A DNA stretch of 61,702 bases, counting the filler, from Sphacelaria rigidula (lineage: Eukaryota), in the NCBI GenBank assembly GCA_964200075.2. It is 10 parts of 10 records of this genome, joined end to end, with 100 filler letters (N's around TTAATTAATTAA, not from the genome) between each part and the next. Parts side by side here need not be neighbours in the genome. Positions count along the whole stretch, not along the records: positions 6,182 to 12,262 come from CAXNAA020022369.1; 9 more parts are not named here. One strand, 5' to 3'. The notes beneath the pieces were generated by a model that saw nothing but the letters and a program-made list of their open reading frames with translations, did not search any database and was not told the origin of the DNA. A program made the translations under genes and the position numbers. Shown here one piece after another: positions 3-49,545 of the stretch. Every line of letters begins with the position of its first letter. The stretch's first letter is position 1.

Positions 3-98
3 CCCCCCCCCCCATGCCCCCGCCCGAAAGGAATGGGGGGTCAATGGTCAAACCACAAAGGCAAGAAACAAAAGAGTAACCCCCCCCCCCCCCCCCCT
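3..98 (+). mobile_element. Short 3'-terminal fragment of the poly(C)-tailed LINE
   Basis: CGAAAGGAATG..GGTCAATGGTCAAACCACAAAGGCAAGAAACAAAAGAGTAA matches the LINE 3' end at 13500-13580 and 53872-53950. C-runs lie on both sides. Confidence 0.7.
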
Positions 99-340: not shown

Positions 341-690
341 GATTTGATCGATTTGGTTGATGAATTGTCGCCCTTCAACTGCCCACCCCCAGGTAGTCAT
401 GGCCCAGCCGTGGCCGTTACCCATCAAATAGACGTGGCCAGACAATAAACGAAACCAAAACACTCGCTGAAGAATAACGAGGAAAAAACGGGAAATCTGA
501 AACAGACCAACAGTGTAGATTAAGAAAAAAAACGAAAAAGAAGACAGCAGAAAAAGGTGGAGATGCCAAAAGGACTCAGAGCAGCAGAGTAGGTACAAAC
601 ACACCAGGGGGGCACCGCAGAACCACCGACCAAGGACACAACCAACAGCTGCTAGGGCCGGACATAATTCTCCGATTGGCGGCCCTCGAC
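341..690 (-). repeat. Interspersed repeat ending in an (AATC)n tail; probable 3' end of a second non-LTR family
   Basis: On the plus strand, (GATT)n followed by a cttcaactg..cccccagg..cagccgtgg core recurs at about 341, 5706, 9328 and 13103 on three different contigs. Confidence 0.6.
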
Positions 691-734
691 GCAGCAGCTT
701 CTCGTTTGTGACGGCGGTTCGATATTACGTCCTG

Positions 735-965
735 CCCATCTAGGATATCCTTCTAGGATATCAATTTCCATCTGGGACGTCCATCTGGGATATGGATATC
801 CATCTGGTATGTCACTCTAGGGGATGTCCATGAGGTAGATCCATCTGAGACGTCCATGTCGTAGATCCATTTATGATATCCATATCGCAGGTGGATGTCC
901 ATATCCCAGGTGCATATCCCAAAGGGGTATCGAAACGCCAGATGGATCTGGTGTCCCATATGGAG
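735..965. repeat. Degenerate minisatellite of GGATATCC / ATCCATCTG / GGACGTCC motifs
   Basis: Dense recurrence of these short self-complementary motifs; no coherent ORF. Confidence 0.55.
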
Positions 966-2220
966 GTCTCGCGATCATTCAAGACGGGGGTGGATTGCTT
1001 GGCGAGATACCTTGGACGCACATCTTTACACACCATGTGCTGACCCACTGGATCCACTCTGAATTCACGCGCGTTAAATCACAAAGAGGATAGACAGAGA
1101 GATCTAAGATAGCGTCTACTATACGAAGACGCGAGGATTTTGAGTTAGTTGGCCGTTGAGCACGATGGACGGTATGTTTCTGTTCCGTTGAATGTTGATG
1201 CGTTGAACAAACTGTTCAAGGCCTTCCCGTGCGCGAAATTACCCTGGAAAAATGGTTGTTCGGGCAAATGTTGACTAAACTCATTGAGACTTAGGTCGAG
1301 GGTGAGGGTGGAGGGGAGGGAGGGGGGCTCGCGAGATGTTTTTAACTTTGATATGCTCATCTACATCGCAGAATGAACAGGGATGTAGGTGATATACACG
1401 CCTGGGCCGGTAAGATCATCCTTGCAACTTAACTGACGCAGCTGACCGATGAGTTTTTAGACGTTAGCTCAAAACAATGCAACCTGTTCTTGACGGCAAA
1501 TCCGGAAATCTGTGTTCTCTATACAAACCGCAAAGTGCCGACCTCCAGTTTCTGGCACTTCGATCGTTATCCACCAATGAGTTATACGGTGCGTCACCTC
1601 TGCGGTAGACTCGCCTCGTCGTCGTCGAGCTCGTCTCCCCAGCTGGACCCAACGCTTTCCTCGCCAAACGGCAACAACCATTTTTCGCGGAGCGGTGTAG
1701 CGCACAGTACATAAATTTCATACACAGGAATAGCGGATACAAAAGAACAACAAAAGTGCAGCGATGCCAACGGTTTTACAGGGGAAACGCGCAGACACTT
1801 GGCGCGGAATATTAGGCGCACCGGCAGCGAAGCAGTCAGCAGGGCATTCAACACCGCAGGATAACGCAAGTAAAAGGGCTTGCGTAAACGGCATGAAGAA
1901 GAGAGATTTCGCGTGAAACATCCAAAGGCTGCTATTGATGTCAACGCCCATATACACCCGGAGCCGTTCTGGACCAGCATGAGATCTCCTGAGCGACATA
2001 TTTCACGAACAGTACTGCCCGTAGATGAGTACGGGGGGACTTGAGTCTCGCACGGGTCGTCGTTTTCCCATGGTGGGAAAGACTTCGTTTTCCGTTGGCG
2101 CGGGAGAGATCGATAGATCTAAGCGCTGCAGCCTTTCCACCAAAGGTACGCCCGAGTAAAAGATGTGCTAGTGTACTCATTGGTCAGTCGGATAAGTTTG
2201 CGTAAGTACCGAAGTTATGC

Positions 2221-2300
2221 CCCCCCCCCCCCCGCCGGCCCGCTCGCGGTCAATGGCCAAATGACCAAGGCGAGCAACAAATAAATACGCCCCCCCTCCT
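2221..2300 (+). mobile_element. Short 3'-terminal fragment of the poly(C)-tailed LINE
   Basis: GCGGTCAATGGCCAAATGACCAAGGCGAGCAACAAATAAATACGCCCCCCC, preceded by a long C-run. Confidence 0.7.
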
Positions 2301-6181: not shown

Positions 6182-6328
6182 GTGGTTGGGGGGGGGTGGG
6201 GGGGGGGGGGGGGGGGGGGGCAGAAGGTTTTGTGAGCTCGTGAGATTGCGTGTGGCCCTTAAGTTTATGGAAGGAGGGGGGAGAGCAGAACGAAGAGGAG
6301 GAGAGAAGTATTTTATACGATAGGACGA

Positions 6329-8679
6329 GGGGGGGGGGGGCGGGGCGTACTCATTCGTTGCTTGCCTTAGTCGTTCGACCATTGACCACGCATCCCTTTC
6401 GAGACGCAGCATCGTTTCCACTCCTAATAAAGGCACTCAAACATTCGGGCGAATATTGCGTTTCTACACCGCAAACCTTGTGCATATCTTAACCCCTCCC
6501 TGATTCGCCGTCTGTGGCCACTATCTGTCCCCTAGTATGCGATGGTTTTCTCTCTTCAGTCAAATGTATCAAACGACTCCAAACCACCTTCGCTTACTTC
6601 CCGCATTTGCCCGTGCAACACATCCCGCTCCTGCCTGTGTAGCTCACATTCTGCAACTCTATGGGTTCTACTCTCTATTGCTCTGCCACAGGGGCAATTC
6701 TGTACATTTACTTCCTCCTTCACTTGACCATTGGTATATATATTTCTTCTTTCCGGCAGGTCCAGGTCCCTCACCCGAAATCGCAGTTCCAATTTTTTCG
6801 CCGAGTGCATGGGGTCATGCAGATATGTTTTCATCCCTTTTCTCTTCTGACCCCCCCCGTATATCTTGCAGAGCAATGCTACGATAGGGGTTGCCCTTTT
6901 TGTTTCTGGGTCTCGTTTTTATGGGAGCCCAAATATATGGGGCTTACTGTGCAACCCAAATCTCCGGAGACAGGACATGGAGATTCAAACAGGGGCCTTT
7001 TAGTGAACTGGCATCATTTTCAGTCTATTTTTAGTGAAAAATGATGCCGATTCTCAAAATGATACGTCCAACACCCCGAGAAACATTTTCGCTCAAAAAG
7101 TGCAACCTCTACCGTAGCATCACTCTGCAGGTGCTCTTCTTTGTCGGTTTCCGTCTTGGTCATTATTTTCCCCTTATTTGTATCATGTCTTGCTTTTGTT
7201 TTGCACCCCCCGCATTCACGTATGGACAGTATCTCGTCTTGGTCTCCTCCTACCTCCTTCCATACTTTCTCGACTTCTCTATCCTACCTTATTTCACCCT
7301 GCTTTTTCGTCACTTTCTTCCATACAGCCCCATCAACTATGGCTGGCAATCTCTTTCTTTTCGTCTTCTTCAAGCCATATTGCCGTTGGAGTTTTGTCAT
7401 GGCTCTGTTTGTTTCAAGTGGGTACATTCCCAACCCTGATCTCAATGCTGTAGTACTCGTCGTTTTGGAACATCCAAGTATTTTCGTAGCTGCTGTCATC
7501 TGTACTGTTTCCAACATCTTGACCAATTCCCCGTTCCCTTCCCATACTTCTGCATATTCCAGCTTTGGTACGATCACGTTCATCCGGATGCATCTCTTAA
7601 TCCTAGTATCTAGGTGCGAGTCTCTGAGGATCATGTCCATCTTTCCTATCTGTGCCTTACCCCTTCATGTTACTTCATTCATGTATGCACCGCAAGAACA
7701 GTTTTTTATATATTTACGCCAAATCATGCGTACTGGTCTACAATCGGCAGTTCCTCTTCTCCTCACTTGTATTTGAACTCTTAAGGGTTCTTCTTATCTT
7801 CGTTGCATTCAAGTACCGCGCATATGTAAATGTTCGCTGTCATTTTCCATTTAGTTGTGAATTCTAGCGCCTTCTCTATTTGGTTCTGCAATCCTTCTGG
7901 TGTTTCTGATATCCGCACGAAATCATCCGCGAACACCAATCCTGATACCTCATCTACCCCCACCTTGACTCCTTGATTTGCTGCTTCTATTGCCATTGTC
8001 AGGTCAAAATAAATAATTTGAATAAAGTGGGTGACAACGTAACGTATATCCTTGTGCAACCCCTTGTAAGACATCACAATATTTCGATATTTCCCCACCT
8101 ACACCACAGCACTTTTGCGCATTCTGTCCTCTTCTCCATCTCTCTCCACATTTTCCCTCTGGTGCCAGTTTCCCATATCTTTTTCCACAGCCCATTTCTG
8201 CATACTGCCATAGGCCTTCTGCACGTCTAGAAAGAAACAGTACGTTGTTAGCCGGGCGTCATTTCTGCCTTGAATAATCTAACCTAATGTGTACACATAG
8301 TGTGCGCGACTACTTTTCGGTCTAGAACCTGCTTGGCCTTCGCTGATTTTTTCTTCCTTCTCTAGCATCGTCCCCAATCTAAGAATGTTCAGAATCTTCT
8401 AGAATGTCTCCCCTACGGTGCTAGGTAGCGTTGTTCCCCTACAATTCCCTGGGTCAGCCTTGTGTCGTCTTTCGAAAAGGTTCACTACCCCTTCTCTCCA
8501 CTCCTTGAGTGGGTACTCGTTATCCCATATCCAATTATACAGGATAGCCACCATGGTGATCATCTCCGCCCTCCTGTACTTTAGAAATCAGTTCAATATT
8601 GTCTGCCCCTGCTGCGTTTCTGTTCTTGAGTTTCGCTACGCACTCCTTTACTTCCTCTCTTGTAAAGTCTCTGCAATCT

Positions 8680-8685
<6 letters not shown>
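6329..8685 (-). mobile_element. Non-LTR retrotransposon (LINE), 5'-truncated and degenerate; RT domain plus C-terminal zinc knuckle
   Basis: Frameshifted minus-strand pieces give TREEVKECVAKLKNRNAAGAD, FFLDVQKAY, GLVFADDFV (YADD equivalent), PKLEYAEVWEG and CPCGRAIESRTHRVAEC (CCHC-type). Ends ATGAGTACGCCCCG + C12. Interrupted by a MITE at 6869-7127. Confidence 0.9.
6869..7127. mobile_element. MITE nested in the LINE
   Basis: About 34-bp imperfect TIRs: left CAGAGCAATGCTACGATAGGGGTTGCCCTTTTTG; reverse complement of right CAGAGTGATGCTACGGTAGAGGTTGCACTTTTTG. Splits the LINE sequence TATATCTT|CAGGTGCTC, which is intact at about 16200. Confidence 0.85.
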
Positions 8686-8710
<25 letters not shown>

Positions 8711-9327
8711 CTTCACATTATAAACCGTTCCGATATCTGCGCGGTACATTTGTACTGGGCATCTGATGCGGGCGCCTTCCGTGGTCACAGGCTAGCAAAA
8801 ACCAAAATAGACCCAGATTCAAAACTCACAAAACGCGATACAAGCAAAATAGGAATAAATAACACTGAAAAAAGGGAGTACATATGGCTCACCTCAGAAG
8901 ATCCGGTGCCGCAGGTGGCCATTCGGACCTTCAGGGGGTGGCACTCGGTTTTCCAACTCGACGCGCGACAAGTAGAAATGAACACAGGGTCCGACTACGG
9001 GCGAGACTCAAGGCCCCAAATACCGCCACCCAAAGAACTAAAGAACTACGAATCGCAATGTTCCATCTTGCGGCTTCTCGAGGGACAGCAATACGTACAA
9101 GCATACCAGGTGTATCAAGACAAGAACTGCATGACACAACGACACCCGTCATCGGGGGGGGTTCACATCGCATTGTGCACAATTTTACAAGAGAGTTCTC
9201 GTGGCCGATAATAACCACGTAATCGTTTGTGCTTACTTGCGGCCGTTGCACCAGAACAGCTCAGCCAAAGCAGTGCTCATCCAGCGTTGGAGACGGCGGT
9301 TGGTGCAAAGGCAGAGGGAGCGCGGCT

Positions 9328-9600
9328 TGATTGATTGATTGATTGATTGCCGCACTTTAACTGACCCCCCAGGGGTCCACCCGTGGTCTCATGATAGACC
9401 TACCCAACAAAAACGAAGCTGAAACACGCTCTAGGGGAAAAAAAAAAAGGAACAGAAAAGAAAAAGAGGGATCGAACAGAACGACATAGCAGACTAAGTC
9501 GTGACAAAAAGTAATAATAATAATAATAATAAGTCAACACAACCAAAGCACAGAAAGAAATGGCCGACCTAAAACAAGAAAAAGGAAAACAAGAGGAAAC
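9328..9600 (-). repeat. (AATC)n-tailed interspersed repeat, copy 3
   Basis: (TTGA)5 then gcactttaactgaccccccagg..ccgtgg..gatagacctacccaac, matching 13103-13215. Confidence 0.6.
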
Positions 9601-9609
9601 GCGGCAAGC

Positions 9610-9881
9610 TTGCGAATCAAGTCTCGCGTAAGAGGTACGCCTCGTGTACCCTGCGCACAGCTGCGCAGAGTGTTTGACGCTCAAAGCCGTTCACAAGGCA
9701 AGGTCAGTGAAGGAAGAAGCTGGCCGCGAAGGAGAAGGCGTGTTTGCACCCTTTTTCCTTCGCGACCAGCTCCTCCCTGCACTGACCTTGCTCCTCGTGG
9801 ACAGCTTTCAGCGCCGAGCGCACGCGCCAGCTTTGTGTAGGGGACACGTGGCGCGCCTCCGATGCGAGACTTCATTCGCAA
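9610..9881. repeat. Long imperfect inverted repeat (fold-back, about 130-bp arms)
   Basis: TTGCGAATCAAGTCTCGC...GCTGGCCGCGAAGGAGAAGG mirrors CCTTTTTCCTTCGCGACCAGC...GCGAGACTTCATTCGCAA around a loop of about 11 nt. Confidence 0.85.
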
Positions 9882-12362: not shown

Positions 12363-13580
12363 GGGATGCACACATAAACAAAGTGATAAAAAAGGGTAAG
12401 GCACAGATAGGCAGGTTGGACGTGATCCTCAGAGACTAGCACCTAGACACTAGGATCCAAAGATGTGTCCTGATGAACGTGATCGTACCTACTGGAATAT
12501 GCGGGAGGAGTATGAGAGGGGAACGTGAAGTTGGTCGAGAGGTTGGAAACAGCACAGATGGCAGCAGCTAAGAAGATACTTGTAAGCTCGAAAACGACGA
12601 GTAGTACAGTTTTGAGAGCAGAGTTGGGAATTTATTCACTTGAAACGAACAGAGACATGAAAAAATTGCGATGGCAGTATAGCGTAAAAAACTTGCAAAG
12701 AAAGAGATTGCCAGTCATGGTTGATGAGGCTGTATGGAAGGAAAGGACGAAAGGGAAGGCCGGAGTAAGATGGGATAAAGAAGTCGATAAACTATGGAAA
12801 GAGAAATACTGGCCATAGATGAAGACGTGGGGTACAAGACAAAAGTAAGAGATATTATAGAAATAAGGGGGAAAGGAGCGCTCTCGAGTCGCTCGACGCA
12901 AGGTAGACGAGGAGGAACACCTGAAGATATACGGGGGGTTGAGAGAGAGGATCGGGATGACAACATATCTGCATGGCCCAATGGACGCTGCGAGCATGAT
13001 GAAACTACGATCTCGGGTGGGGGACCTGGACCTGTCAGAAAGAAGAAAGAGATATGCCAGTAACCGTGTGGAGGAGGAAGGAGATGCACAGAACCGCCTC
13101 TCTTTGATTTGATTGAATTGATTGTTTTCATTGATTATCGTACTTCAACTGACCCCCCAGGAGTCCAGCCGTGGTATTACGATAGACGTACCCAGCAAAA
13201 CAATACTGAAACATCTCTGTGGCAGAGCAATATAAAGCAGAAGTCATGTAGCTGCAGAATGTGACCTAGGAGGAACGGGACGTGCTAGAGGGGGAAATGC
13301 GGGTCGTGACGAACGAAGGTGGTATGGAATCGTTTGACGCATTAGACAGTAGAGAGAAAACGATGGCTATACTGGGAGATAGATGGTGGCCAAAGACGGC
13401 GAAACAGGACCGGGATACGATATGTAAAAGGTTTTTGTGTAATGTATGGAAGGAACGTAATGAGCGCCGGAATGTTGAAGGTGTCTCTTATCAGGAGTAG
13501 GAACGGTGCTCCGTCTCGGAAGGAATGCGTAGCCAATGGTCAAACGACGAGGCAAGCAACAAATGAACATGCCCCTCCCC
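12363..13580 (+). mobile_element. LINE 3' portion (same family as 6329-8685), degenerate
   Basis: KLVERLETAQMAAAKKILVSSKTTSSTVLRAELGIYSLETNRDMKKLRWQY, HLKIYGGLRE and MAILGDRWWPKTAKQ. Ends GCAAGCAACAAATGAACATGCCCCTCCCC. Contains a nested (AATC)n-tailed repeat at about 13103-13215. Confidence 0.9.
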
Positions 13581-15492
13581 CTAATGGCAGGAAACTAAGA
13601 TAAGCCAAAAATCGGCGGCTCGATGTTTTCGAGATCACAATCCTCAGGAATTGGCGTAATGGGTTGCAGCACGTGTGTTTCGTGGCGGAGAGCGTGTTGT
13701 TCAACCATATGGAAGGGCGGCGGGGAGATTCGAAGACGTCGCAACAGCAGTTCCTGATGGCATTGCACGCCCTGGAATGATGCTCCAGCGTCATCATCAG
13801 GAAGTGAGTTGTCTGAGCGACGCACACCTGACGGATACAACCCCTGCCCAATCGTCGAATGACGCAGCGGCCTTGATGCTTGAGGTGTCGAGTGCATGGG
13901 TACGCCTTCAACCGGCGCCGCAGAACGCGGCAGGACGAACACGCATGAGAATTCCAAGTTCGCGTTTCCGCACGGGACACATGCACCTCAGCAATCTTAC
14001 TCCCCTGTGGGGTTCTGTGTGAACGCTACCGAACATGCACCTCGACAGCATGCATACGCATGCACAAGTGAGTTCAAGTTTTTGATAGCAGGTTACCGAA
14101 AAAGTAAAATTATATTCCAGGACGAGGTTGAATGTTCAATACGTGCAGCATTTCCAGCGAAGTTGAGGAACGTTTTTTCCTCACCCGCTGTACTCCGGTG
14201 ATTACATGCACACCTGCTGCATCTCTATTTCACCTGCTAGAGGTGCTTCGTCGCGTCAGTGTTGTGTCCGGCGAAGCGAGGTCTCAGCACTACGGTAAGT
14301 GATGGACAGGCACCGTTCAACCATTGGGGGACCAATGGGCGTTTTACCCGTATACACAGCTCAGGTGTTTCACGCAGCTCAAGTGGTCGGAAGCCGCAGT
14401 AGCCATGACAGCATCGGGAGTGTTGGCGTCCGTGAAACGTGGTACCTGGACACTCCTCCTTGCGTGCAGCAGCACAGAACACGTTGACGTTGGTGTGAAC
14501 ACTTGTTTGTTTTTCATCGAAGATTTTCTTTTTCACCGGCGACAAGGGGTTCGATTCGGTGCCGCATCCAGGAAAAAACACGGAAAATCCATATTATTTC
14601 ATTGAGCAACCGATACCTCTTGTTCTCGGGTATACAGAAGAATACCAGCGCGTTGACTTTCACTTTCCGGGCACAGCGTCGAAATTCTAACTGTTCGATT
14701 GTTCACCCACTAGCGTCCCCAAAAAGATGGCTGATCGTCCCAAGGTCCGGTCTCCGGTAGGTCAAACTATCCAAAAGCATCATTGGAAACACTTGAGATC
14801 GAATTCTATCACAATGACGGACATTACTGTAAACATCACTAGTTCGATCAAATTTTAGAGTACCATACGTACGGTGCTCGAGTGTTTGAGGAGCTACCGT
14901 ACTTCCGAACGCAAGGTTTATGTGAGCATACGAGTCAACCCCCCCCCAACACACACACTCTGAAGGAACATAAAGACAGAAGCGTTCGTACTCTGTTGCT
15001 CGCAAACAGGAGGGCTTGATGTCAAATCTCTATACGCACCATGTGAGACGTGGACGGCCGGGAAAACATACTACAGTGGGGGTCCCGTCACAGGGCGGGT
15101 TTCCACCATAATGCAGTCAAATACACGAGTCCGATCCTGTATAGTACTATCAAGTCATCGAGCTATACCAGCGTAGTACGGGGTTCCAGCACAGTGCGGT
15201 CATGCCGGGCTGGCAGCCCAGTGCACAAAGCCGGGGTTCCAACCATTGAAATCAAGTACAACATCATCACCTGACCTGGTGAGATCTCTACGCATCCGAC
15301 GTTTTGCCTTGTTGTGGCGTTTTACCCCCCTTGAACTGCGAAGTAGTTGCCGATTTTCAGCGAGCATGTATGCCATTGTGAACGTCTGTGACTACATTTA
15401 GATAAACGAATGCTGCTACAGTGAATGAAGATCCCAATATTTGGAGTTAAAGGGCTGGCTGGTTTCCAAAATATGCTGGAGACGATACACAC

Positions 15493-17731
15493 CTATTGGA
15501 CTCCGTCATAACGGCGTTGAGGACGGGAAACTTCCGAAGTATTCCCGATCTCGATTTTTCCTTCTCCAGCTTACTGTCGCCCAATTTCCCCGCAACCTCT
15601 CCTGAGTCACTCAGCAGTAGGTTACGCACCGGGGGGAGGGAGGGTGGGGGGGGGGCAGAAAATTAGGCTGTACTCATTTTTTGCTTGCCTGAACCACTTG
15701 ACCGTTGGCCACGCATCCGTGTCGAGACGGAGCACCGTTCCTACTCCTGATAGAGACACCTTTAACATTAGGGCGCCCATTACGTTTTTTCGTTACCTTA
15801 CACAACAGCTTTTACATATCCCATCCCCTTGCTCCTGCGCCGTCTGTGGCCACTGTCTATCTCCTAGTATAGTCATCGTTTTCTCGTTACTGTCTAATGT
15901 ACCACACGATTTCATGCCACCCTCGTTTGCTCCCCACATTTCCCCCTCTAGCACGTCTCATTCCTCCTTGTATAGTTCGCATTCTGCCAGTACATGAGTT
16001 CTACTCTGCTCTCTGCTCTGCCAAAGCGGCAATACTGTGCATCCACTTTCCCCTCCAATCGACTACTGATAACACCTCTTTCTTCTTTCTGGCAAGTCCA
16101 GGTGCCCCACCCGAAATCGCAGTCTCAACTTTTTCGCGCAGTTCATTAGGTCGTGCACATATGTTTTCATCCCTATCTCCTCTCTCAGCCAGCCCCTCGT
16201 ATATCTTCAGGTGCTCTCGCTCGTCAAACCTTCGTCTTGGCGTTACTTTTGCCTTTTTCTCCATCGCATCTCCTCGCTTTGCCTTGTAATCCCCACATTC
16301 ACCTGTGCGTATTATTCCGTCTTGGTTCCTCCCATGTCCTTTCACACTTTCTCGAATACGCCATTCCACCTTGTTCCGGCTGCCCTTCGGTTACTTTCTT
16401 CCATACAGCCCTATCAACTATGGCTGGCAGTCTCTTTCTTCGCACGGTCCCTACGCTATGATATTGCCATTTCAATTTTCTCATGTATCTGCTTGTTCTT
16501 CAGTGAGTTCATTCCTAAGTCTGCCCTCCATACTATATTGCGCGTTGTTTCTGACCATCGAAGTATTTTCTCAGCCACCGCCATTCATACTGTTTCCAGC
16601 GGCTTCATTAACTTCGCGTCCCCCTTCCATACTTTCTCCTGCATGTCATAGATTCGGTACGATCACATTCATTAGGATACATATCTCAATCCTAGTATCG
16701 AGGTGCGAGTCTCTCACATCCATCTTGCCTATCTGTGCCTTACCCTTTCCTCCTACTTCATTGACGTGTGTATCCCACCAGCAGTTTTGTCAGATCTTTA
16801 CGACAAGGTAAGTATACTGGTCTACAATTGGCAATGCCTCTTCCCACTTCCAGTTGAACTCTACCGGGCTCTTCTGATCTTCATTACATACAATATGTCG
16901 CACTTGGTTACGTCCGCTGTCACTCTCCATGATATTCTAGTGTATTCTAGCGCCTCCTCTATTTGCTTCTGTAATCCTTCTGGTGTTTCTGATATCCCCA
17001 CAAAATCATTCGCGAACATCAATCGCGATTCCGTATCTTTCCCCACCGTGACTTCTTGCTTTGCTGTTTCTATTGCTATATCAAGTCATTGATAAATACC
17101 TTGAATAAAGTGGGTGATAGCGTACGTACTTGTGCAACTCATTGTATTTCGATACTTCCCCATCTAGCATCATGACACTTGTGGCACATTCTGTTATCTT
17201 TTCCCCCCCTCTGATCCCAGTTTCCCGCGCCGGGGCGGGAGGGGAATAAATCGTTCACTTTGATTTCAAACTCCGACACTGACGAAATCATCAATATGAA
17301 GGATATGCTCCACCGCAGAAGCAAATAAACAACACACACACAAAAAAACACTAGTGATCACCACGTGCCTCCTTCCGTCACCCCCTGTATGACTCGAAAC
17401 ACTTCAAAAGTCAATCTATCTATCTGCTACGGTCTTCACACAGTCAGACCAAAAGTGCCCGGGCGAGAAGATGTCATCGTTTCCGTGACTTCTCCCCCCA
17501 CTCATATAGGTGTAGTCCGCGGGCGTCTGGAGTTTACAGTTGTCCAGCGCCCTTCCCCGCTTCTGCCCCCCTTCCCCGACGTACACCCTCCGTGCTGGTA
17601 AAATGCTCACCATTAAGTTCTGCGAGAAGTGGTCCGCGAACAGGCTTGCCCTCATCAGACGCAAGGAGTTGCAGGATGCGCGCCATCGTAACCGACGTGG
17701 TGTCGTAACCGGCGAATATCGCGGCGATCAT
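15493..17731 (-). CDS. Cytochrome P450, two consecutive internal exons (17731-17611 and 15601-15493)
   Basis: Exon 1, MIAAIFAGYDTTSVTMARILQLL, carries the I-helix AGxDTT motif. Exon 2, ...GILRKFPVLNAVMTESN(R), carries the K-helix ExxR motif. Splice sites are GT-AG, and the phase-1 junction (AAT G|gtgagc...actcag|GA GAG) joins in frame. The heme-binding exon is not on this contig. Confidence 0.85.
15631..17226 (-). mobile_element. LINE, 5'-truncated and degenerate, inside the P450 intron
   Basis: RLMFANDFVGISETPEGLQKQIEEALEY, RKRLPAIVDRAVWKKV, HLKIYEGL. The 3' end AATGAGTAC is followed by a C-rich tract. Confidence 0.9.
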
Positions 17732-18895: not shown

Positions 18896-19211
18896 CCTCA
18901 CGTACCGTTCCATGGGCACGCCATCGAAGCACGCGTTTACGCCGAGGATCCTTTCCGCAAGTTTCTCCCATCCACCGGCTCCCTCGTCACATACCGACAG
19001 CCGGAGCCTTGTCACTTCCCGCCCAACTACGCTATTGGTGCCGACGCGGCGGCGGGGGAAGGGGAGGGCGAAGGGGGAGGGGTCAGGGTGGACGCGGGAG
19101 TTGTGGAAGGGTCCGCTGTGTCGATTTACTACGACCCCATGATCAGCAAGCTCGTCACGTATGGAGACACGCGGATGGGAGCGCTTCATCGCCTCGGCGT
19201 CGCCCTGGATG
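18896..19211 (+). CDS. PCCA: Biotin carboxylase C-terminal region exon, most similar to propionyl-CoA carboxylase alpha subunit
   Basis: C-rich tract + gcatag| acceptor and GATG|gtgag donor. Translates [36 protein letters not shown]...[51 protein letters not shown] and [13 protein letters not shown] are PCCA-type motifs; methylcrotonyl-CoA carboxylase alpha is the alternative. Missed by the ORF track. Confidence 0.85.
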
Positions 19212-19319
19212 GTGAGATTGATTGATCACTACATACAGGTATTTCGATTTTGATGGTCGTTGATGAAACATTTTGTGAAGAGTATGGAGAAAAAGAGTTT
19301 GCGTAGGAAGGATTTGATG

Positions 19320-19750
19320 GTGGTGGTACTTGTAGTTGTAGATGTAGTTGTAGATGTAGTTGCAGTTGTAGATATAGTTGTAGTGGTAGATGTAGATGTA
19401 GATGTAGATGTAGATGTAGATGTAGATGTAGATGTAGATGTAGCTGTAGTTGTAGATGTAGATGTAGCTGTAGTTGTAGTTGTAGTTGTAGTTGTAGTTG
19501 TAGTTGTTGTTGTAGATGTAGTTGTAGTTGTAGATGTAATTGTAGATGTAGTTGTAGTTGTAGATGTAGATGTAGATGTAGATGTAGATGTAGATGTAGA
19601 TGTAGATGTAGATGTAGATGTAGATGTAGATGTAGATGTAGATGTAGATGTAGATGTAGATGTAGATGTAGATGTAGATGTAGATGTAGTTGTAGTTGTA
19701 GTTGTAGATGTAGTTGTAGATGTAGATGTAGATGTAGTTGTAGTTGTAGG
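19320..19750. repeat. Compound hexanucleotide microsatellite (GTAGAT)n/(GTAGTT)n
   Basis: About 430 bp of tandem GTAGAT/GTAGTT, with (GATT)n at about 19830-19860. Confidence 0.97.
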
Positions 19751-19828
19751 TGTTGGGTTGATGTTGCCTAACCTGCAGGTCGGGTATGCACGGCTGTCAG
19801 AAGAACACAACGAACCGGACACTATTGG

Positions 19829-19859
<31 letters not shown>

Positions 19860-20072
19860 ACAATATCTCACATTTGCTGATTGCAACATTATGTGTGCAG
19901 CCCAAATAGACGTAAACGTCATTTGTCGAGGTAAGTGACAGGTCTGTAGCCGTCACACGTAGCCTGCCGCTGGGTCACTACCCATTCCATTTCTTGACAT
20001 TATCTGGCCTGTCGCCTTATATATATGTGTATGTATATATATTGCAAATCTATCGATGACCCCCGTCGTAGC

Positions 20073-21304
20073 TAGAGGTAGGCACCGGATACCAAAAACA
20101 AAAAACCGGTTACCGGATAAGAGGCATTATTCTCAGAAACAAAACACCGGTTTAACCGCTTTTTTTCAGCAGGTTTAACCGATTCACCGGGAAACCAGTT
20201 TAACCTGATGAGCAACGGAAAACGCCTCCACAACGTTGAAGCGCAGGCGAATTAGGCGTTGTTGTCGTGTGTTCCGTGTGTGATGGGTGATGGATACGCT
20301 CAAGCACACCCATTGCCAGTGACGGCAAGGTTTGATCTCACACATCCGCAACCGTGCAACACCTGTCGAACTCACAGCCCAGTGGCTGGTGACAACGATT
20401 ACAGTGTGTCGAAAGGAAAAACTGTAGTAGTAGGCACCTGAACTGTTCATGTCGTAATTTCTTCGTAATAATTGGCGATTTTCTTATGCTTTTTCGCTTC
20501 CCACCGCTCATCACTTTGGGGGGGGGGCGTACTCATTTGTTGCCTACATGGGGGATCTGAAGATACTTGTATCCGCTCCACATTTCAAGAAAATTTATAA
20601 TCTCTGTACTCAACATCGAGTGACCTACGGGCTTACCGGTCATCGGAGGTCCTGCACTTTTCAGCCGAGATTCTGACTCTTCGGTACTTTTTGTCGATCG
20701 ACCCCATCCCGATCGTATTTGTGAAACAAATGTACAGGCTTGCTCTTTTAAAATTCCACCTGCTCTTTGCACTAGAGCCGAATATCTGTATTTCACGGTC
20801 AATAAAACCCTCCTGATAAATGGGGTATCTACTCGTATCGTCCCATAACACCAAATAACACTAACTTGGGCACTGTGTTTTGGGGAAGATCTGCGTATTT
20901 TACAAAAATGTACCGACGCTAGCACTTTCGAGTTCTATCGAAGAGTAGTCAGCTAGAAACCCCCCAAACAACCCTGAACAGTTCAGGCGTCCCGTACTGT
21001 ATGCACCCCACGCCCTGCCCGCCCTTGCAACCCAACGCCCAACAATACGAGGGAGGAGTAGGTGTCATCCCATTCCTCAACTTCAAACTTCGCAATTGAT
21101 CCGGTTACACCGGAAGTACCGGAAGACCGGTTTAAGCGCCATAATAACGCCCCCTTCTCTCGGTTAAACCGGTTTTACGGTGAACCGTTTTAACCGTGAA
21201 AAAAAAACTCCGTTTTTTTTTACAGAACCGCAAACGGTAAACGCATGTTGGGGTTTCCAAGAACCGGTTATCTCCGGTGTTTTTTTTACAGGTGCCCACC
21301 TCTA
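20073..21304. mobile_element. Non-autonomous hAT element with intact 8-bp TSD
   Basis: TIRs TAGAGGTAGGCACC / GGTGCCCACCTCTA; perfect 8-bp duplication GTCGTAGC at 20065-20072 and 21305-21312; many subterminal AACCGGTT-type motifs at both ends. Confidence 0.92.
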
Positions 21305-23620: not shown

Positions 23621-24550
23621 TTTTCGCTTCTTTCAGCTCTCGCCGTGCGCACTATCCATGGTGATCGACGGTTAACAGCGTGCGTATCGATGTTGCAGGT
23701 TTTCAGGGGTGGTGCTTTCTGATTCGGAGGAGCTGAAGCTTGTGGCGGTGGCGGCTGCGCTGCGATGGGGTAGGGAGTACATGGACGCCTCCATTGGAAC
23801 GAAAACTGACAAGTGAGAGTTGCACACATACTTTTTCACTTTGCAACGAAAATTCGAACAAATATCTTTCACTTTTGTAATGCTCGCTCTCCGTCACGAT
23901 GTTGTAGTACGTGAGACAAGGAAACAATCTCTAATGCGTGAATCACTATTGATTGAACCTTTGGGAACGCATTGACGATTCTTGTTTTTGTGAATCGGCA
24001 TCATTTTGACTTGAAAATGACTGAAAATGATGCCGATTCGCGAAAACAAGAATTGTCAATCGGTTCCAATAGGGTTGAACTCGACGTACATTGATCACGT
24101 TGGTTCTCGCTTGGTTATTGGATGTTTTGATGTTTATTCATCTGTTTGTTTTGGGGGGAAAATGTACAGCACAAGACACGGCGGTGCAGTGTGCAGTGAT
24201 GCGCATCCATTTTTTTCATTTTCCCGGGGCGTGGGGGAGTGAACGAAGAGAGTCTGACGCACGGTCGATAGTCGTGCTAACAGCCTCCATGTGCGTGTGG
24301 CACACATCCTGGACAATGACAATTAGATTACATCATCAAAAGGTGTGCTGCGTACAGTATCGACTACAGCATCTATTGCGACACAGTCGATATATTCTAT
24401 ACTGTACGCAGTAAAGTATTTTGCAATGTAATCTTTTGTCCAGGGTGTGGTGTGGCAATGTGTGTGTGTGTGTACGCGCGCGCGCGTCACGTTGTTGAGC
24501 GCCTCCTCGTTCTCAGGATCAATTCGTAATTGTAAGGGAAAAATCGACCC

Positions 24551-24622
24551 CCCCCCTGGTCCGGCGTAGCCTGGTCCGGCGAGAACCCGGCGTGCTCCGT
24601 CCCGGCTTTGTAGGGGCGGACC
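24551..24622 (+). mobile_element. Fragment of the ~0.5-kb non-autonomous partner element
   Basis: CTGGTCCGGCGAGAACCCGGCGTGCTCCGTCCCGGCTTTGTAGGG, preceded by a C-run and cut by the contig end. Confidence 0.7.
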
Positions 24623-37082: not shown

Positions 37083-38130
37083 GGGGCGTACTCATTCGTT
37101 GCTTGCCTTAGTCGTTTGACCATTGACCACGCATCCCTTTCGAGACGGAGCAACCCCATTGGGGGGGGGGGGCATGATTTTGCATGCCGTAGTCAAATGA
37201 CCATTGACCTTGCACCCTTACAAAGCCTGGACGGAGTACGCGGAGTTTTTGCCGGACCAGACTCGCAATTAATCACCAAGCGCGAAGTGTCGTGATGTTT
37301 CTGGCGAGTCGCATTAAGGATGAGCTGCATCATTCTAAGATTGTGTGGCCCGAAGCTTATTAAGCATCTTGCATATGGGCGACAGCCTCACATGAGTTGC
37401 TTCATTTTCTGGTATCGCCACATGCAGAGACAGCCATGGGATCCACAGTGCCTCATGGGTGTGTCGCCATTACACACTACGTGGTATGATCATCCCCTGT
37501 GCGCATGATTGAGGTTCTCCCATCCCGCACAACATGACGTAGCTCGACCACCATCATGGCTACCGCAAAAAAACAACGCAAATGAGCAAAACAAACGGTG
37601 AGCTGGTTGTCTAGCTTACGCAGTGAGTGGTGTGTTTTACAGTGTCTTCGCCAATCGACGCCAACCCCATAGGGGGTCCATCCCCACGAAGCCGGGACGG
37701 AGCACGCCGGGTTTTCGCCAGACCAGCTAACCCTATTGGGGTGGTGCGCACTCATTTGCTGCTCGCCTTAGTCGTTTGACCATTGACCACACATCCCTTT
37801 CAAAACGGAGCACCATTCCTACTCCCAGTAGAGACACCTCCAACATTTCGGTGCTCATTACGTTTATTTCACACATTACACGAAAACCTTTTACATATCG
37901 TATCCCCTTCCTAATTCACCGTCTGTGGCCCCCATCTATCTGCTAGCATAGCGATTGTTCTCTCGCTACTGTCTAATGTACCAAACGATTTCATGCCGCC
38001 TTGGTGCGGGGGGGAGGGGAATGGTGTTGGCACGGGAGAGGCGAGCGATGGGGGGTGGGGCGTGCTCATTTGTTGCGCGCCTTAGTCGTTTCACTATCGA
38101 CCACGCATCCCTTTCGAGACGGAGCGGGCG
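37083..38130 (-). mobile_element. Cluster of five co-oriented LINE and partner-element 3' ends separated by G/C-rich runs
   Basis: LINE tail 37083-37153; full partner element 37173-37668; partner fragment about 37680-37725; LINE 3' fragment about 37737-38000; LINE tail about 38050-38126. Confidence 0.85.
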
Positions 38131-38849
38131 GTTGGGGGAGGCGGCTGGAAAGCTCCGGCTGTAGCGGGCTCCACGGTAGCACTGACGTCGTCTGTGGCGT
38201 CGTCTGCAACAGAAAACGAAACCCCCCGCTCGGGACGCCTTGGCAGGTAATATTTTTGCATGGAATGTTCAGTTTATTTTGGCAAGCGCCGAGCTTCGTC
38301 AAGTCCGGGCTTTCTGAATTAGTTTCCCGGCTGCACGTTTGAATCTCGATTCTCCTCTCGATATATTGTCTTTATTTTAGTGTTGTGTGAACAGTCCCGC
38401 GAATAGCACTATTATACATCCGTCAACGCTGTGTTATCCTCATCGTTTCGCAAATGGGATTTCCGAGAAAAATTGCGTCGAGCCGCTGTACCTGTGACGA
38501 TCGTCGCTGGCGAGTCTACAGATTATTGCGCCGCACAAATCAGGTACGAGAGTATTCCCATCATGAACCCTTGGCGTTGACGTACCGTGAGGCATTCGAA
38601 CCGCTGTCTGCCGAGTGAAGCTACTGTAATACGCAGATGACGAGTAACGACATCGCTTACAACATGTTGAATGCTCCCCTTCGGTGATGTCGATCGCACG
38701 TGGGAACCTCGACTAAAGGTTACAATACAACACCCCGCACCCCCCGCCCCTTCATACTGAATTATGCGGGGAGCTCTCACGCCCGTTACCGTCGCGGAAT
38801 GGTTCACCCGAACGCCAGCGCCCGATCTCAGCAAGTTGCCCTACGGCCG

Positions 38850-42497: not shown

Positions 42498-43715
42498 CTC
42501 CAGCCATAGCTACGTGCTCGGACTCGGTGGTTGACAGGGTAACGCAGTGTTGCGTTCGACTAGTGTGCTCGATACTGCTATCCGTCCGTACATCACCGCT
42601 ACCCCGGAGAAGATTTTACTTCTCCGGGTTCTCATCCTTTTTAAAAAAAATCCATCCCCAATTTGTAAAATCACGTCAAGAGTCTTATGAGGTGCTGAAA
42701 TGATCAAGGTTATAGAAGGGGGCAGCGAAAAAAAAAGTCAGGACACGTGGGCCCCAAGATCGAAAATTCGAGTTTTTGAGGGCGGGGGGGGGGGGCACCC
42801 AGCCGTGTGTCCCCTGGTTTTTTGCCGAAGCGTTGGCGGATGCGATCAGCTGCCGTAGACAGTAGAGATCCTTATATATCATATATCATATATTATATAT
42901 CATATATTATATTTCATGTATTATATTTCATATTCTATATTTCATATAATACAGAGCTATAATATAGCTCTATATTATACAAATGCTTCTCCTCAATATA
43001 TACTACATTATATACTCCGTATGTTATAAACAAAATATTTATATATTATAAATCATATAAATCATATAAATATATGAATATTTGTCAAGGGGCAAGCGAC
43101 GGTTTAAGAGACAACCAACTAGACTAATGACAAGTCAGCGCTGACTTGTCAGTAGTCTAGTTNNNNNNNNNNNNNNNNNNNNNNNNNNNNNNNNNNNNNN
43201 NNNNNNTTAATTAATTAANNNNNNNNNNNNNNNNNNNNNNNNNNNNNNNNNNNNNNNNNNNNATACGAAGATTGTAATCCTCCGGGTTCTCATCCTCAAT
43301 CAAAAGCACCACCCTCAACATAGATGATCGGCTGTTACAAGAGCAACATCATGAAGGTCCGTTGCGGGAACGTGACATCAGCATAATACGTTTGTTTGCT
43401 AGAATAGGATCAGTTGGCAGATAATGTGTGTGTTGACGACAGAATGCTCGTTGGGCCTCGGTTTACGCCCGAGACCGCTGTACCGAATGCTTCAGTGTCC
43501 AATAACAGATGACTGTTGCTGGGCAAACAAAGTACGCGTTGTGTTCGACGTATTCTTCTGTGGCGTTTAGGCTCCAAGTAAACAACGACCGAGATATTTT
43601 ATATAGATCGAAACTCGAATTACTTACCCTAAAAATTGACAGGGTCTCATGTTAGGAAAACAAAATATTTCCTGTTTGAATTGACTGGGTCAGGAGGGTT
43701 TCTTGGCGTCTGGTA

Positions 43716-44088
43716 TATTATGTGGGGTGGAGAACCTGAACTCCGCGCAAAGGGGGTGATTGTACTACGTAGTGTTTATATGGTGAAATAGCCATTAGGC
43801 AGTGTGAACCCGTGGCTGTCTCTGGAAGTAGCGAAACCAAAAAATAAAGCAACTAATTCGAGGCGGTCATCCATGTGCGAGTCATTCTGTACGCTTAGGG
43901 CCGAGCAATCGCATCAAGAGGCAGCTCACCCTTCATGCGACTCGCCGAACATGTCACGGCGCTCCGGGCCGAGGGATTGATTGCGAACCTGGTCCGGCGA
44001 ACCCGGCGTGCTCCGTCCCGGCGTTGTAGAGATGCTTGGTCAAAAGTCCCATGACTAACATACGGCATCCAAGATCATGAGTACACCA
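43716..44088 (+). mobile_element. Partner element, 5'-truncated diverged copy
   Basis: Aligns with the reverse complement of 50436-50800 (CCGTGGCTGTCTCTGGAAGT, TTCATGCGACTCGCCG, GTGCTCCGTCCCGG, AAGATCATGAGTAC). Confidence 0.75.
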
Positions 44089-44257: not shown

Positions 44258-46032
44258 GTGAAGTACGAAGACGTTCAGCACCTAATGTTCGCCAAGACGA
44301 CCAAGTTGGTGAACGCCGTCCCTCATCGCTGGATATCTGTATGCCAAGTACTACAATAGAGGAGGTTCTCCGCAACTGGGCGGCACTTGAAGAGCGCTTC
44401 CAGAAAAACGAGCGCGGCGCCACTTTTCTCTCTGGCGGCACACAAAACGGAGATAGAGGAGCTGTACAGCTTGATGAAACCGATGTCTGTGTTGATGAAG
44501 ACGAGCCAACAGACGGGAGTGCCGACAGGCCTTGACACTTTCCTCGCCCTCGTCATGCTCCGCTGTTCCACGCTGGACGTCAAGAAGCCGCTCGCCATCA
44601 CGGTATCCCGCAAGACTCTAGAAGGGGACGCCGGCACCACAGAAACGACAACCGTCAACCGCCCGCCCGAAAACCTGACGTCGGTGATCACCAAAACTTA
44701 TAAGATGCTGCTGGACGCAGTGAACAAAGTGCTTCTTTGATAAGCGATACAACGGAGCGGTGGTTGGAAACCCACCGCCGGGCTAAGTCTTCGAAATGGC
44801 GGCATGCATGAGCCCTTGCTTGATGTGGCTTCCGGCGGTGTGTAACAACGAGGGAGAAGCGCAGCGCGTCAGCAAGGTAATCAAGGACAAGGTGGTGGAC
44901 CTCCTGGTGAGCATGGCTGAGGAAGTAGGTGACGGGCAGGAAAAGGAACCTCAGGACAACGGCAGCAACGGCGATAACGGTGATAACGGCGGCAAGTCTA
45001 CCGCACCGGGCGAGAAGCGGAAGCACGGACTTTTCTCCACCGTGACCCCACCCAGCAAGAAAACGAGTGAGGCGAAGAAGAGATAACTCGCCAGCGGTGT
45101 ATTCGGCGATTGCTCGAGCAACACCAAAAATACGGGGCCGGTCGTCCTGACCACGCGGCAGATTTGCCAGCAGGAGTTCGATCACTTCCAAATGCGATTC
45201 GACGGTGCGTACGTAGACAACTACCCGGTGGCGCACCTACTCGACTTCTGGGCGGGCGAGGGGGGGTCGCTTTACCCGAATATGGCTCGCACTGCTCGAG
45301 TCCTGACGTCTATGCCGGCATCGTCTGCCGTTCTCGAAAGGGACCTCAGCACCGCTGGGCGTCGTATCACCGGGTCCCGAGGCAGGCTTGATTTGGCATA
45401 TGCGGAGATGGTGTTGTTCTTCCGTGGGAACCACGCGTACATCCGCGTGGAAGTTCCCGCTCTATCGACGGAGCAAGCGCTGCAAGCGGTACCAAGGCGG
45501 CTCTCTGATCCTAGGGCGGAGATCGGAGGTCTTTCTTCGGCGAATACGGAGCGGGATGATGACTTCGACGAGAACGCAGTCGAGATGTCCAACTACGTTG
45601 GGACGGGATGGTGATGAAGGATGTGCAATTTTTCCCAGCAAGGGTATTTTTCATAACCTTGATTGGTTGTCCAATATGCCTTTCTTCTCTGTTGGCGATA
45701 CTTGCCTTTATTCTTGTACCTTCTGTTGAGTTGAGGCTCTTGCCTGCATGGTTTTCAAGGGTCGAGTGAGTTAATTCGTCTGGAAATTGCTTGATTTTAG
45801 TGTAGTCAATTTGTACCGTACGAAGCAACCCTTACGCTTTGTTTTCAGTGTTGCAACCCAGGTACGCGCACCCTAGGCACGTGGAAATACGCAAACGTTG
45901 CGTGGATACCCCTCGGACCAGCGGTCAACTGTTTTCTCCCTTTTGGGAAATCAGGCCTGAAAAATCGTGAATTTGGTAATTCCAACCGGTCATGATTCGT
46001 CCGAATCGTGATGGCTGCACAACACACCCAAC
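44258..46032 (+). mobile_element. hAT (Ac-like) DNA transposon: decayed transposase C-terminal half and 3' terminal region
   Basis: KLVNAVPHRW..STTIEEVLRNW (TRWNS-equivalent) and LLDFWAGEGGSLYPNMARTARVLTSMPASSAVLERDLSTAGRRITGSRGRL (hAT dimerisation domain, ends 45614); frameshifts and stops. 45755-46030 is homologous to 56895-57190 in reverse orientation. Confidence 0.88.
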
Positions 46033-46409
46033 ATTTGATTGCTTATCCCTTTGACCGCGAGGGCAGGAGGTTTCTGAATCGGCATCATTCACACCCGAGA
46101 AATGTAGTGAATTACAGTAGGCGCCCGCACTCAAGAACCGCTTATTTTGCGTGAGGCTCAAGGCTTATGTATTGCCTCAACCCGAGCACCTGTTCTTATT
46201 TGCCTAGTTCTTACTTTGGCCAGGCACTACTCGTCCCTGAAAACGCGGGTTCTTGTTCTTATTTCAACACCCAGTGCTCCAGGGGGGTATGGCAACGTCC
46301 GTTCGTGGTGAACTACAGGACTCTGAGTACTTGACATGAGTATTAAATTCGCACCCTCCGCTTGTCGATTGGAAAACGCTTGTCAGCACAACAGACACTC
46401 GAACGCGTC

Positions 46410-47237
46410 GCAGCATCACGATCACTGGAAAGTACAAGTATATCACAACAAACGTTCGCAGAAGAGTTGGCACGGAAACTCAATGTTGAGGTAGGTAACA
46501 GTATTCCGATGAAGCCCGGTGTGAAGCTTGAAGAGTTCAGAGAACACGAAGAGCCAACGGAACTACCTTTCAGAGAACTGGTGGGATCACTCATGTGGCT
46601 GGCCACTCGAACACGGCCAGACATATCTAATGCAGTACGAGCAGTAGCAAGGTATTGTGCGTGTCCCAGAATCCTACATTGGCGTGCAGCGATTGGTATT
46701 TTGGGATATGTGAAACGGACCAGTACACTTGGGATTACCTACCGTGGAGGAAGTTTGCAGGGAATGAGCCTTCAGGCGTTTGCTGATGCTGATTACGCCA
46801 GCATAGCAGCGGACAGGCGTTCGGTGTCTGGGGGGCTAATCATGTGTGGTGGCGGATGTGTTTCTTGGTTATTCAGAACATAAAAATGCGTAACGCTATC
46901 TACATCGGAGGCAGAATACGTAGCCGTGACTGACGTGTTGAAGGAGGTAATGTTTCTCAGACAGGTATGGCAATTTATGTTGCCTCAGGTTGGAGTACCA
47001 TGTATTCCGTTGTTCGAGGATAATCAGGGAGCCGTTCAACTAGCACAGAATCCCATGACCATCTCGAACTCCAAGCATATCGACGTTAGATATCATCTCA
47101 TCAGGGAAGTAGTATCGAGGAAGGAGATTTCGATTATCCACGTAAGATCGGAATATCAACATGCTGATTTCTTGACAAAGGTGTTGCCCACAGAGGTCTT
47201 TGAATTTCATCGTAATTATGTCATGAGTATTATGTGA
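46410..47237 (+). mobile_element. Ty1/copia pol 3' end (RT C-terminus plus RNase H) with a premature stop
   Basis: PFRELVGSLMWLATRTRPDISNAV, AFADADYA..DRRSVSG, FRT*KCVTLSTSEAEYVA (TAA at 46881-46883), FEDNQGA, SKHIDVRYH, QHADFLTK. Confidence 0.95.
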
Positions 47238-49442: not shown

Positions 49443-49545
49443 CGGCAAAACCCCGGCGGTCTCCGTCCTGGCTTTGTAGGGATGCGACGTCAATGGTCAT
49501 ATGACTATGGGCATGCAAGATCATGAGTACCCCCCCCCTCCCCAT
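49443..49545 (+). mobile_element. 3' end of the partner element with C tail
   Basis: CTCCGTCCTGGCTTTGTAGGGATGCGACGTCAATGGTCATATGACTATGGGCATGCAAGATCATGAGTAC followed by a C-run. Confidence 0.8.

Follow-up and report, generated by a model that had tools for sequence, protein, structure and literature searches.

Copies of an RTE-X-like LINE in Sphacelaria rigidula end in runs of C and share their 3′ end with a non-coding partner

We analysed a stretch of 61,702 bases from the genome of Sphacelaria rigidula (GenBank assembly GCA_964200075.2), hereafter called the window, which consists of ten unlinked pieces of 6080-81 bp joined by spacers of the form N44-TTAATTAATTAA-N44, and we found that copies of a long interspersed nuclear element (LINE) scattered over it end in a run of C. 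The initial annotation of this DNA, made from the sequence alone, had drawn attention to this feature around positions 6329 to 8685, and its observation proved to be right and well above chance. The copy at 6329-8672 on the minus strand is a dead, 5′-truncated copy of a LINE with an endonuclease of the apurinic/apyrimidinic (APE) type, very probably of the brown-alga RTE-X lineage of RTEX-1/2_Ec32, and the C tail has already been catalogued for what is very probably this family in the annotation table that accompanies an Ectocarpus study (PMC12477816), to judge from the rows of that table that concern RTE-X. As for how such tails arise, we consider it rather probable that an RTE-X-type LINE with a (C)n end nicks G tracts, integrates by priming from G and mobilises a non-coding partner in trans.

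The counts that carry the main finding refer to about 60.8 kb of window sequence and to the loci fetched from outside it. The 35-nt consensus of the initial annotation matches the window four times with at most three mismatches, as against no match in 100 shuffles, and a looser 27-nt core with up to seven substitutions matches nine times. A covariance model built from the last 72 nt of nine copies recognises 17 such ends across the window (E<=1), and for 15 the E-value is below 1e-4; LINE ends are located on eight of the ten pieces, in agreement with the claim that the family occurs on most of the contigs, and all twelve places that had been named as examples are among the hits of the model or the C-run flanks. 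For the 16 ends with a complete 15-nt flank on the 3′ side, a C-run of at least four follows in 14 cases (background 4.1%), at least eight C within 15 nt in 13 (background 3.3%), and a C-run of at least seven in 8 (background 0.3%). An A-run of at least four follows none of the 16 ends in the window (background 6.8%) and none of three outside loci, in agreement with the initial annotation, which had seen no A-tail on its copies. The two ends that lack an adjacent C-run are that of an old copy at 15669, in which C10 begins 13 nt downstream, and that of an old copy of the partner at 44003-44085.

The copy at 6329-8672 was recognised as 5′-truncated and frameshifted by a tblastn search with P0124, a full-length protein relative of 1360 aa, and by the stops and frameshifts in its translation. 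The pieces aligned to P0124 between 8672 and 6354 have 49-81% identity and are interrupted by frameshifts and stops, the endonuclease part is absent through the 5′ truncation, and the reverse transcriptase (RT) still gives a weak match to RVT_1 (E 0.007). At the other end, the TGA at 6351-6353 is followed by GTACG and then by CCCC-G-C12 at 6345-6329, which is the arrangement that had been described, with the stop codon about 5 nt before the C-run. A Logan contig from sequencing run X1, possibly the assembly's own sample, spans 6232-6358, including the G12 run, with 0 differences; therefore, the C-run is present in the reads too. The truncation point lies near 8672-8680, directly behind a (CAA)9 tract, which may form part of the linker of the element or may have been left as a tail by a different one. 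Given that Ectocarpus RTE-1/2 and RTE-N1 are annotated as ending in (CAA)n in the relevant rows of the table (PMC12477816), a second element of the LINE type may have this tract as its tail. The approximately 900 bp beyond it (8710-9630) are very high-copy in contigs from sequencing runs, and within the window we found no second copy of this repeat ending in (CAA)n.

Copies from elsewhere extend this picture to elements that appear to be intact. Using a 22-nt motif of the 3′ end that leaves out the tail, we retrieved three loci from metagenome contigs (L001-L003), whereas the same motif gave 0 matches in viral contigs. Two of these loci, L001 and L002, contain uninterrupted open reading frames (ORFs) of 1005 codons that are open at the 5′ edge of the locus and end in ...NGQMTKASNK* or ...NGQTTKASNK*, with the stop 5 nt before tails of C8 and C10 and GTACG between, while the tail of L003 reads CC-T-C7-T-CC-T-CCC. 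Because these loci show it, the C-run is a trait of young, apparently intact copies elsewhere and not of decay or of this assembly.

A protein search with a 126-residue piece of the ORF gave 184 short and 16 long relatives, 6 of the 16 being named Ectocarpus sp. CCAP 1310/34. Two full-length relatives, P0124 and P0129 (1328 aa), contain RVT_1 (E 1e-31 and 2e-33) together with Exo_endo_phos and Exo_endo_phos_2, which identifies the endonuclease as APE-type, as well as a CPCG...H....C motif and a conserved C-terminus; no Pfam match to RNase H was found in either. P0129 is 90% identical (353/391, with one 25-residue gap) to P0128, a protein of Ectocarpus sp. CCAP 1310/34. The single long ORF thus runs from an N-terminal region through the APE endonuclease, the RT and the CCHC motif to a C-terminus that reads ...GAPSRKGCVVNGQMTKASNK. 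The family had been described as encoding an RT and a CCHC motif, and this is borne out by the alignment of the window copy with residues 668-1360 of P0124 and by the CPCG...H....C motif in the latter. Neither a PDB sequence search, in which L1 ORF2p and R2 match about equally (E 1e-20), nor the ESM Atlas, which gave only generic endonuclease-reverse transcriptase (EN-RT) clusters, separated the clade. Truncation on the 5′ side is variable, the shortest copy having 17 nt and the longest more than 2.3 kb, and the 3′ end is common to all.

The last 72 nt are the best-conserved stretch of the element, with a mean pairwise identity among LINE copies of 0.84-0.87, versus 0.63-0.85 upstream; for L001-L003 alone, the values are 0.93-0.94 versus 0.74-0.93. 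Because the ORF reaches to 5 nt from the end, these last ~70 nt are coding sequence and conserved 3′ module at once. The module can be folded into two small hairpins, in which 90.5% of cells pair, and by eye, the arms of the first are kept between the LINE and its partner, while the loop differs (GAAA vs GGCUUUGUA). A structured recognition signal could plausibly be present in the module. The sole notable folding z-score, that of L001 (-2.66), comes from pairing of the element with an inverted match in its flank and not from the module. At this locus (670-790, minus strand), the flank behind C8 (GCACCTCCAAC) is the reverse complement of the element ~100 nt upstream (GTTGGAGGTG), a match that may have arisen by chance or may be a piece of a further copy in inverted orientation.

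The same kind of 3′ end is found on a non-coding element of 553 nt, the partner, whose own end (...GGTCAATGGTCATATGACTACGGCATGCAAGATCATGAGTA) is related to but distinct from that of the LINE. Partial copies of the partner are found at 43715-44085, 50424-50931, 49443-49541 and 24557-24622. Comparison of partner and LINE in 12 pairs gave an identity of 67-81% for the terminal ~60 nt, and C-runs stand behind partner ends at 49530, 50419-50435, and 37161-37172. No tRNA and no Rfam family was found anywhere in the window (ARAGORN; Rfam at the gathering score), and no resemblance to tRNA, 5S or 7SL is recognisable in the head of the partner. By analogy with 'stringent' pairs, made up of a LINE with a short interspersed nuclear element (SINE), we infer that the partner may be mobilised in trans through recognition of the module. 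In the copy at 37173-37725 (minus strand), element positions 35-86 resemble positions 498-546, with the common pattern TGGTC.GGC.A.AAC.C.GCGT.CTCCGTCC.GGCTT; this diverged repeat of the start of the 3′ module near the 5′ end suggests an old head-to-tail dimer.

C is abundant on both sides of the insertions. On the element's strand, the 20 nt of 5′ flank contain a mean of 12.0 C (n=12; at least 10 C in 10 of the 12) and the 20 nt of 3′ flank a mean of 12.7 C (n=11), as against a background of 4.95 +/- 2.34. The partner at 37173-37725 is bordered by a 16-nt target-site duplication (TSD), identical at 14 of 16 positions, which has the C-run as its start and extends over AAT(A/G)GGGTT, a sequence that is not repetitive. 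A shorter case is found at 53619-53694, where C9-TGCCTCC faces A-C5-AGCCTCC. Insertions are also stacked on one another: from 38132 to 37083 on the element's strand, a short LINE end, a 265-nt LINE copy, the partner, and another short LINE end follow in order, each on the C tract of the previous one. The initial annotation had proposed that the RNA carries or anneals through an oligo(C) 3′ end and is primed by a G-rich target strand, and this reasonable interpretation is now half supported: the C-rich flanks, the one duplication that starts at the C-run, and the copies seated on older tails all favour the part that concerns the target.

The rather probable course of events that we put forward parallels that of L1 in its simplest form, with C taking the place of A, and would have the endonuclease nick the bottom strand at a G tract, which on the element's strand is a C tract. 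The oligo(G) 3′ end thus set free would then pair with a small number of C residues that terminate the RNA. These residues may derive from transcription through the C-run that follows the source copy, slippage could add further length to them, and reverse transcription would begin at the oligo(G) primer. A second nick ~10-25 nt downstream would give rise to a TSD that starts with the C-run. Since each insertion would leave a fresh G/C tract, and thus a new target, tail-to-head chains and tandems would be expected to accumulate. In this course, the specificity of the nick site, the C residues on the RNA, and the mobilisation of the partner in trans are what we infer from the arrangement of the copies.

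Other origins of the C-runs can be imagined. That they are artefacts of sequencing or assembly, for instance poly-G read ends, might be suggested by an N10 gap at 50357-50366 that lies amid G/C runs and oddly homopolymer-rich sequence. However, the runs lie within contigs and are bordered on each side by unique sequence, and on the element's strand it is always the same 3′ end that precedes them. Three other assemblies contain them as well, the X1 contig shows them without difference, and the curators of Ectocarpus record them too in the table rows concerned (PMC12477816). The artefact explanation is therefore hardly credible and, for practical purposes, already refuted. A more serious alternative is that only the target is rich in C: the RNA would end in ...GAGUACG without any C, the endonuclease would cut (C)n/(G)n tracts, and the C-runs would be duplicated target. 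Both flanks are indeed equally C-rich, about half of the copies have a 5′ run that matches the 3′ run in length, and the published note on RTEX-2_Ec32, '(C)n termini/TSD', in its table row (PMC12477816), would fit as well. On the other hand, the clear duplication has a pure C12 at its 3′ side and CACCACCCC at its 5′ side, which newly made C would explain more easily, and there are ultra-short copies with long pure runs (C10 at 20518, C37 at 61607), although neither point is decisive. We regard an origin in the target only as unlikely, if still worth bearing in mind.

It is a good deal less likely that the run is made at integration, by an RT that adds untemplated G to the nicked end or slips heavily and that would have no need of a G/C-rich target. 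Other LINE enzymes are known to add untemplated nucleotides at junctions, and the wide range of run lengths, from 4 to 37, would agree with it. Nevertheless, it leaves unexplained the C-rich 5′ flanks in 10 of 12 copies, the duplication of the partner at 37173-37725 that begins with the run, and the stacking of insertions on older tails; the C-rich 5′ flanks weaken it.

Several observations also weigh against G-primed integration of a C-ended RNA. Our data are DNA contigs, which cannot show RNA ends, and the oligo(C) on the RNA, the other half of what had been proposed, thus stays conjectural. The 3′ C-run exceeds the 5′ C-run in length in 5 copies, falls short of it in 4, and equals it in 1, and given this lack of consistent asymmetry, nothing shows that the element adds its own C. 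Because both flanks are C-rich, alignment scores of a copy's own pair of flanks (8-22) show no excess over those of cross-paired flanks (mean 15.1, sd 5.1, n=110); the duplications of other copies are inseparable from this shared C-richness, with the exception of that of the partner at 37173-37725, for which the boundary was placed by hand. The long copy at 6329-8672 has no C-run at its 5′ junction. The hairpins of the module have 0 compensatory changes, with no excess over shuffles, and in 4 of 5 cases the z-score of the fold is ordinary. Finally, the assignment to RTE-X is a probable one, made from the published classification, from matching features and from the Ectocarpus protein match.

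A fuller version of the idea would bring together pairing of oligo(C) with oligo(G) as primer and template, an endonuclease specific for G/C tracts, an RNA that ends in C, and a retrotransposition signal that is self-sufficient within the last ~70 nt of the coding sequence; we hold this combination to be possible, albeit tentatively so. If it were true, each insertion would seed a new target, the family would be the main source of dense G/C homopolymer tracts in these algal genomes, and the self-sufficient signal would explain why sharp-edged tail-only units, flanked by C-runs and often in tandem, are so abundant. These copies of ~66-70 nt (37083-37158, 38050-38132, 53863-53934, and 9-80) have a near-identical start, just 5′ of the first small hairpin (..GCTCCGTCTCG), with a C-run directly upstream. 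In 114 contigs of run X1, the ~70-nt unit is preceded immediately on its 5′ side, at place 6411, by a long run that reads C in the element's sense, and joints that go back (6411 to 6342; 6410 to 6343) indicate tail units in tandem with few C between them. The ~70-nt units could be a discrete mini-element, the product of a strong RT stop, or the result of tandem amplification; no family of this length is found among the RTE-X rows of the published annotation table (PMC12477816). The summed depth in run X1 is 3′-biased, with 3.1e6 at 6182-6384, 7e4-8e5 further into the element, and 65.9 for unique DNA, values that are not a copy number, the first bin also containing a long G-run. In run X8, which is only guessed to be RNA, G-runs are found in the loose ends beside the tail with an agreement of 0.4-0.5, from which we draw nothing.

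The window as a whole contains 23 runs of at least nine G or C, versus 12 of A or T, and at least 13 of these 23 long G/C runs abut an end of the LINE or partner family. LINE and partner thus appear to account for most of the long G/C homopolymers in the window, and the family would therefore shape the composition of brown-algal genomes, the gaps in their assemblies and, possibly, G-rich structure-forming sites. Some very long runs have little or no element end beside them, namely 61607-61643 (C37), 55494-55513 (C20), and 6188-6220 (C23+C9), the one at 61607 being preceded only by GTACG; these three may be extreme 5′ truncations or expanded tails. A homopolymer-rich cluster of G/C runs (C15, C8, C9, G17) at 50272-50435 surrounds the N10 gap, where the tails seem locally to break or confuse the assembly.

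Table 1. Positions of LINE and partner copies and of associated features in the window.
Positions	Strand	Feature	Support
6329..6345	-	Tail of the studied copy, CCCC-G-C12 in element sense, then unrelated flank	X1 contig concordant
6346..6417	-	Conserved 72-nt 3′-terminal module: last ~22 codons, TGA (6351-6353), GTACG	Covariance-model hit, 97.8 bits
6354..8672	-	Decayed ORF remnant, P0124 residues 668-1360 (RT, post-RT region, CCHC, C-terminus)	tblastn
8683..8709	-	(CAA)9 microsatellite directly upstream of the truncation point	
3..97	+	Tail-only LINE copy (9-80), C11 on 5′ side, C18 on 3′ side	
2212..2296	+	Short LINE copy, C14 on 5′ side (2220-2233), C7 at 3′ end	
12365..13586	+	Decayed LINE copy cut by piece start, residues 996-1360, tail CCCCTCCCCC	
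15646..17224	-	Decayed 5′-truncated LINE copy, residues 836-1360, C10 tail 13 nt off the end	
20518..20545	-	Ultra-short LINE copy, about 17 nt of 3′ end, then C10	
30716..30800	-	Short LINE copy, C-rich tracts on both sides	
37083..37158	-	Consensus-like tail-only LINE copy, tail cut after CCCC by piece end	
37738..38002	-	265-nt 5′-truncated LINE copy, residues 1281-1360; its decayed C tail is the target of the partner insertion	
38050..38132	-	Tail-only LINE copy, C-rich on both sides	
53863..53952	+	Tail-only LINE copy, C/T-rich tracts on both sides	
58480..58530	-	Ultra-short LINE copy, then CCCCT-C11	
37150..37746	-	Full-length partner, unit 37173-37725, C12 tail; duplication CCACCCCAATAGGGTT (5′) / CCCCCCCAATGGGGTT (3′)	
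24548..24622	+	Partner 5′ end directly behind a C9 run; cut by piece end	
43715..44085	+	Older partner copy, no C-run remaining at 3′ end	
49443..49538	+	Partner 3′ end, then C-run (C9 at 49530-49538)	
50419..50931	-	Partner copy, query positions 94-600, C17 tail, adjoins the N10 assembly gap	
53619..53694	-	Short partner-type copy, flanks C9-TGCCTCC (5′) / A-C5-AGCCTCC (3′)	

Besides these copies, the window contains sequences that appear to belong to other elements or genes. Judging their translations by eye only, we noted an ORF resembling a Copia-type polymerase (46347-46883), a gag-like ORF (48234-49340), and an ORF resembling a hAT-like C-terminal region (45087-45614). On the minus strand at 53935-54645, an ORF has a subtilase-type GHGSHTA motif, with a tail-only LINE unit sitting at its end; the sole database relative of the subtilase-like ORF (54010-54645) has 32% identity and contains Pfam PF00082. 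At 19155-19867 there is a long, imperfect ATA/TAT-type microsatellite, which gives open frames in several phases.

Mammalian L1 has a poly(A) tail, a T-rich nick site, and duplications that start with A. The LINE described here and its partner resemble L1 with Alu in having a homopolymer tail, a duplication that starts with the same homopolymer, insertions into older tails, and a partner that rides along. The letter, however, is C and not A, and ordinary mRNA polyadenylation cannot supply C; furthermore, unlike Alu, the partner has a specific ~60-nt 3′ module in common with the LINE, and not a homopolymer only. Another set of LINEs, which includes Waldo, Mino, Kibi/Koshi, and Dong, targets microsatellites with repeats of two to four nucleotides. 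As in these elements, the tail resembles the target repeat, although here the target would be a mononucleotide C tract, and we know of no (C)n/(G)n case among them. To our knowledge, LINEs with a (C)n tail are rare among described elements, which poses the mechanistic questions of where the template C residues come from and whether the endonuclease reads G/C tracts.

Tails that are repeats other than poly(A) have been described for other LINEs. The passages of PMC3747384 that concern tails cite the tail dependence of mammalian L1 and Alu, list UnaL2 with (TGTAA)n and the I element with (TAA)n as having non-A repeat tails, and describe LINEs with slippage and a repeat tail other than poly(A) that recognise a 3′ module common to them and a SINE-like partner. 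For Ectocarpus, the table rows give (CAA)n tails for RTE-1/2_Ec32 and (CA)n for CRE-1_Ec32 (PMC12477816). As far as these sources describe them, the likeness to UnaL2, the I element, RTE-1/2_Ec32, and CRE-1_Ec32 lies in a short repeat tail that stands behind a conserved 3′ module, which is presumably recognised, with slippage on the repeat, whereas the differences are that the repeat unit here is a single C and that the module lies inside the ORF, with a 3′ untranslated region of 5 nt.

The closest match is with the RTE-X families of Ectocarpus. A look for prior annotation, which had been recommended at the outset, showed that (C)n 3′ ends and C-rich TSDs are already catalogued for RTEX-1/2_Ec32 and their partners in the relevant rows of supplementary file 1 of PMC12477816 (Genome Biology 2025). 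A prior catalogue entry with this feature had been named in the initial annotation among the outcomes that would speak against it. In the table, RTEX-1a_Ec32 is annotated with 'single EN-RT ORF; (C)n 3′' and a 'C-rich' TSD, and RTEX-2_Ec32 with '(C)n termini/TSD'. RTEX-N1a_Ec32 is a non-autonomous element of 607 bp whose entry reads '60 bp 3′ end 83% RTEX-1_Ec32/RTEX-2_Ec32' and 'can be present in tandem', again with a 'C-rich' TSD, and RTEX-N2_Ec32 is non-autonomous with 188 bp (PMC12477816). According to the parts of the study that deal with repeats, RTE-X LINEs form 7 families with 16,418 copies and 3.41% of the Ectocarpus genome, RTEX-N1 has over 6000 copies, and RTE-X together with the partner makes up the most abundant repeats (PMC12477816). 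The expression 'C-rich' has 0 occurrences in the main text of that article, the tail being found noted in supplementary file 1 only. In the literature, where the term 'poly(C)' cannot be matched, we found no further reports of C-tailed LINEs, and the accessible text of PMC9942856 describes RTE-X in a ciliate without tail data.

To the extent that the table rows characterise them, RTEX-1/2_Ec32 and the LINE described here agree in features: both have one EN-RT ORF, end in (C)n, are bordered by C-rich duplications, reach a very high copy number, and are frequently truncated at the 5′ end. The LINE described here also has close protein relatives in an Ectocarpus genome. Likewise, RTEX-N1_Ec32 is a non-coding partner of ~600 bp with its last ~60 bp at about 80% identity that can occur in tandem. 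As a discovery, the tail and its C-rich duplications add little, since the published annotation table already has both; what is left to discover is the mechanism, the sharp-edged ~70-nt tail-only units, and the share of the family in G/C homopolymers. Unlike the present analysis, the published rows give the tail as a table entry, without a mechanism (PMC12477816).

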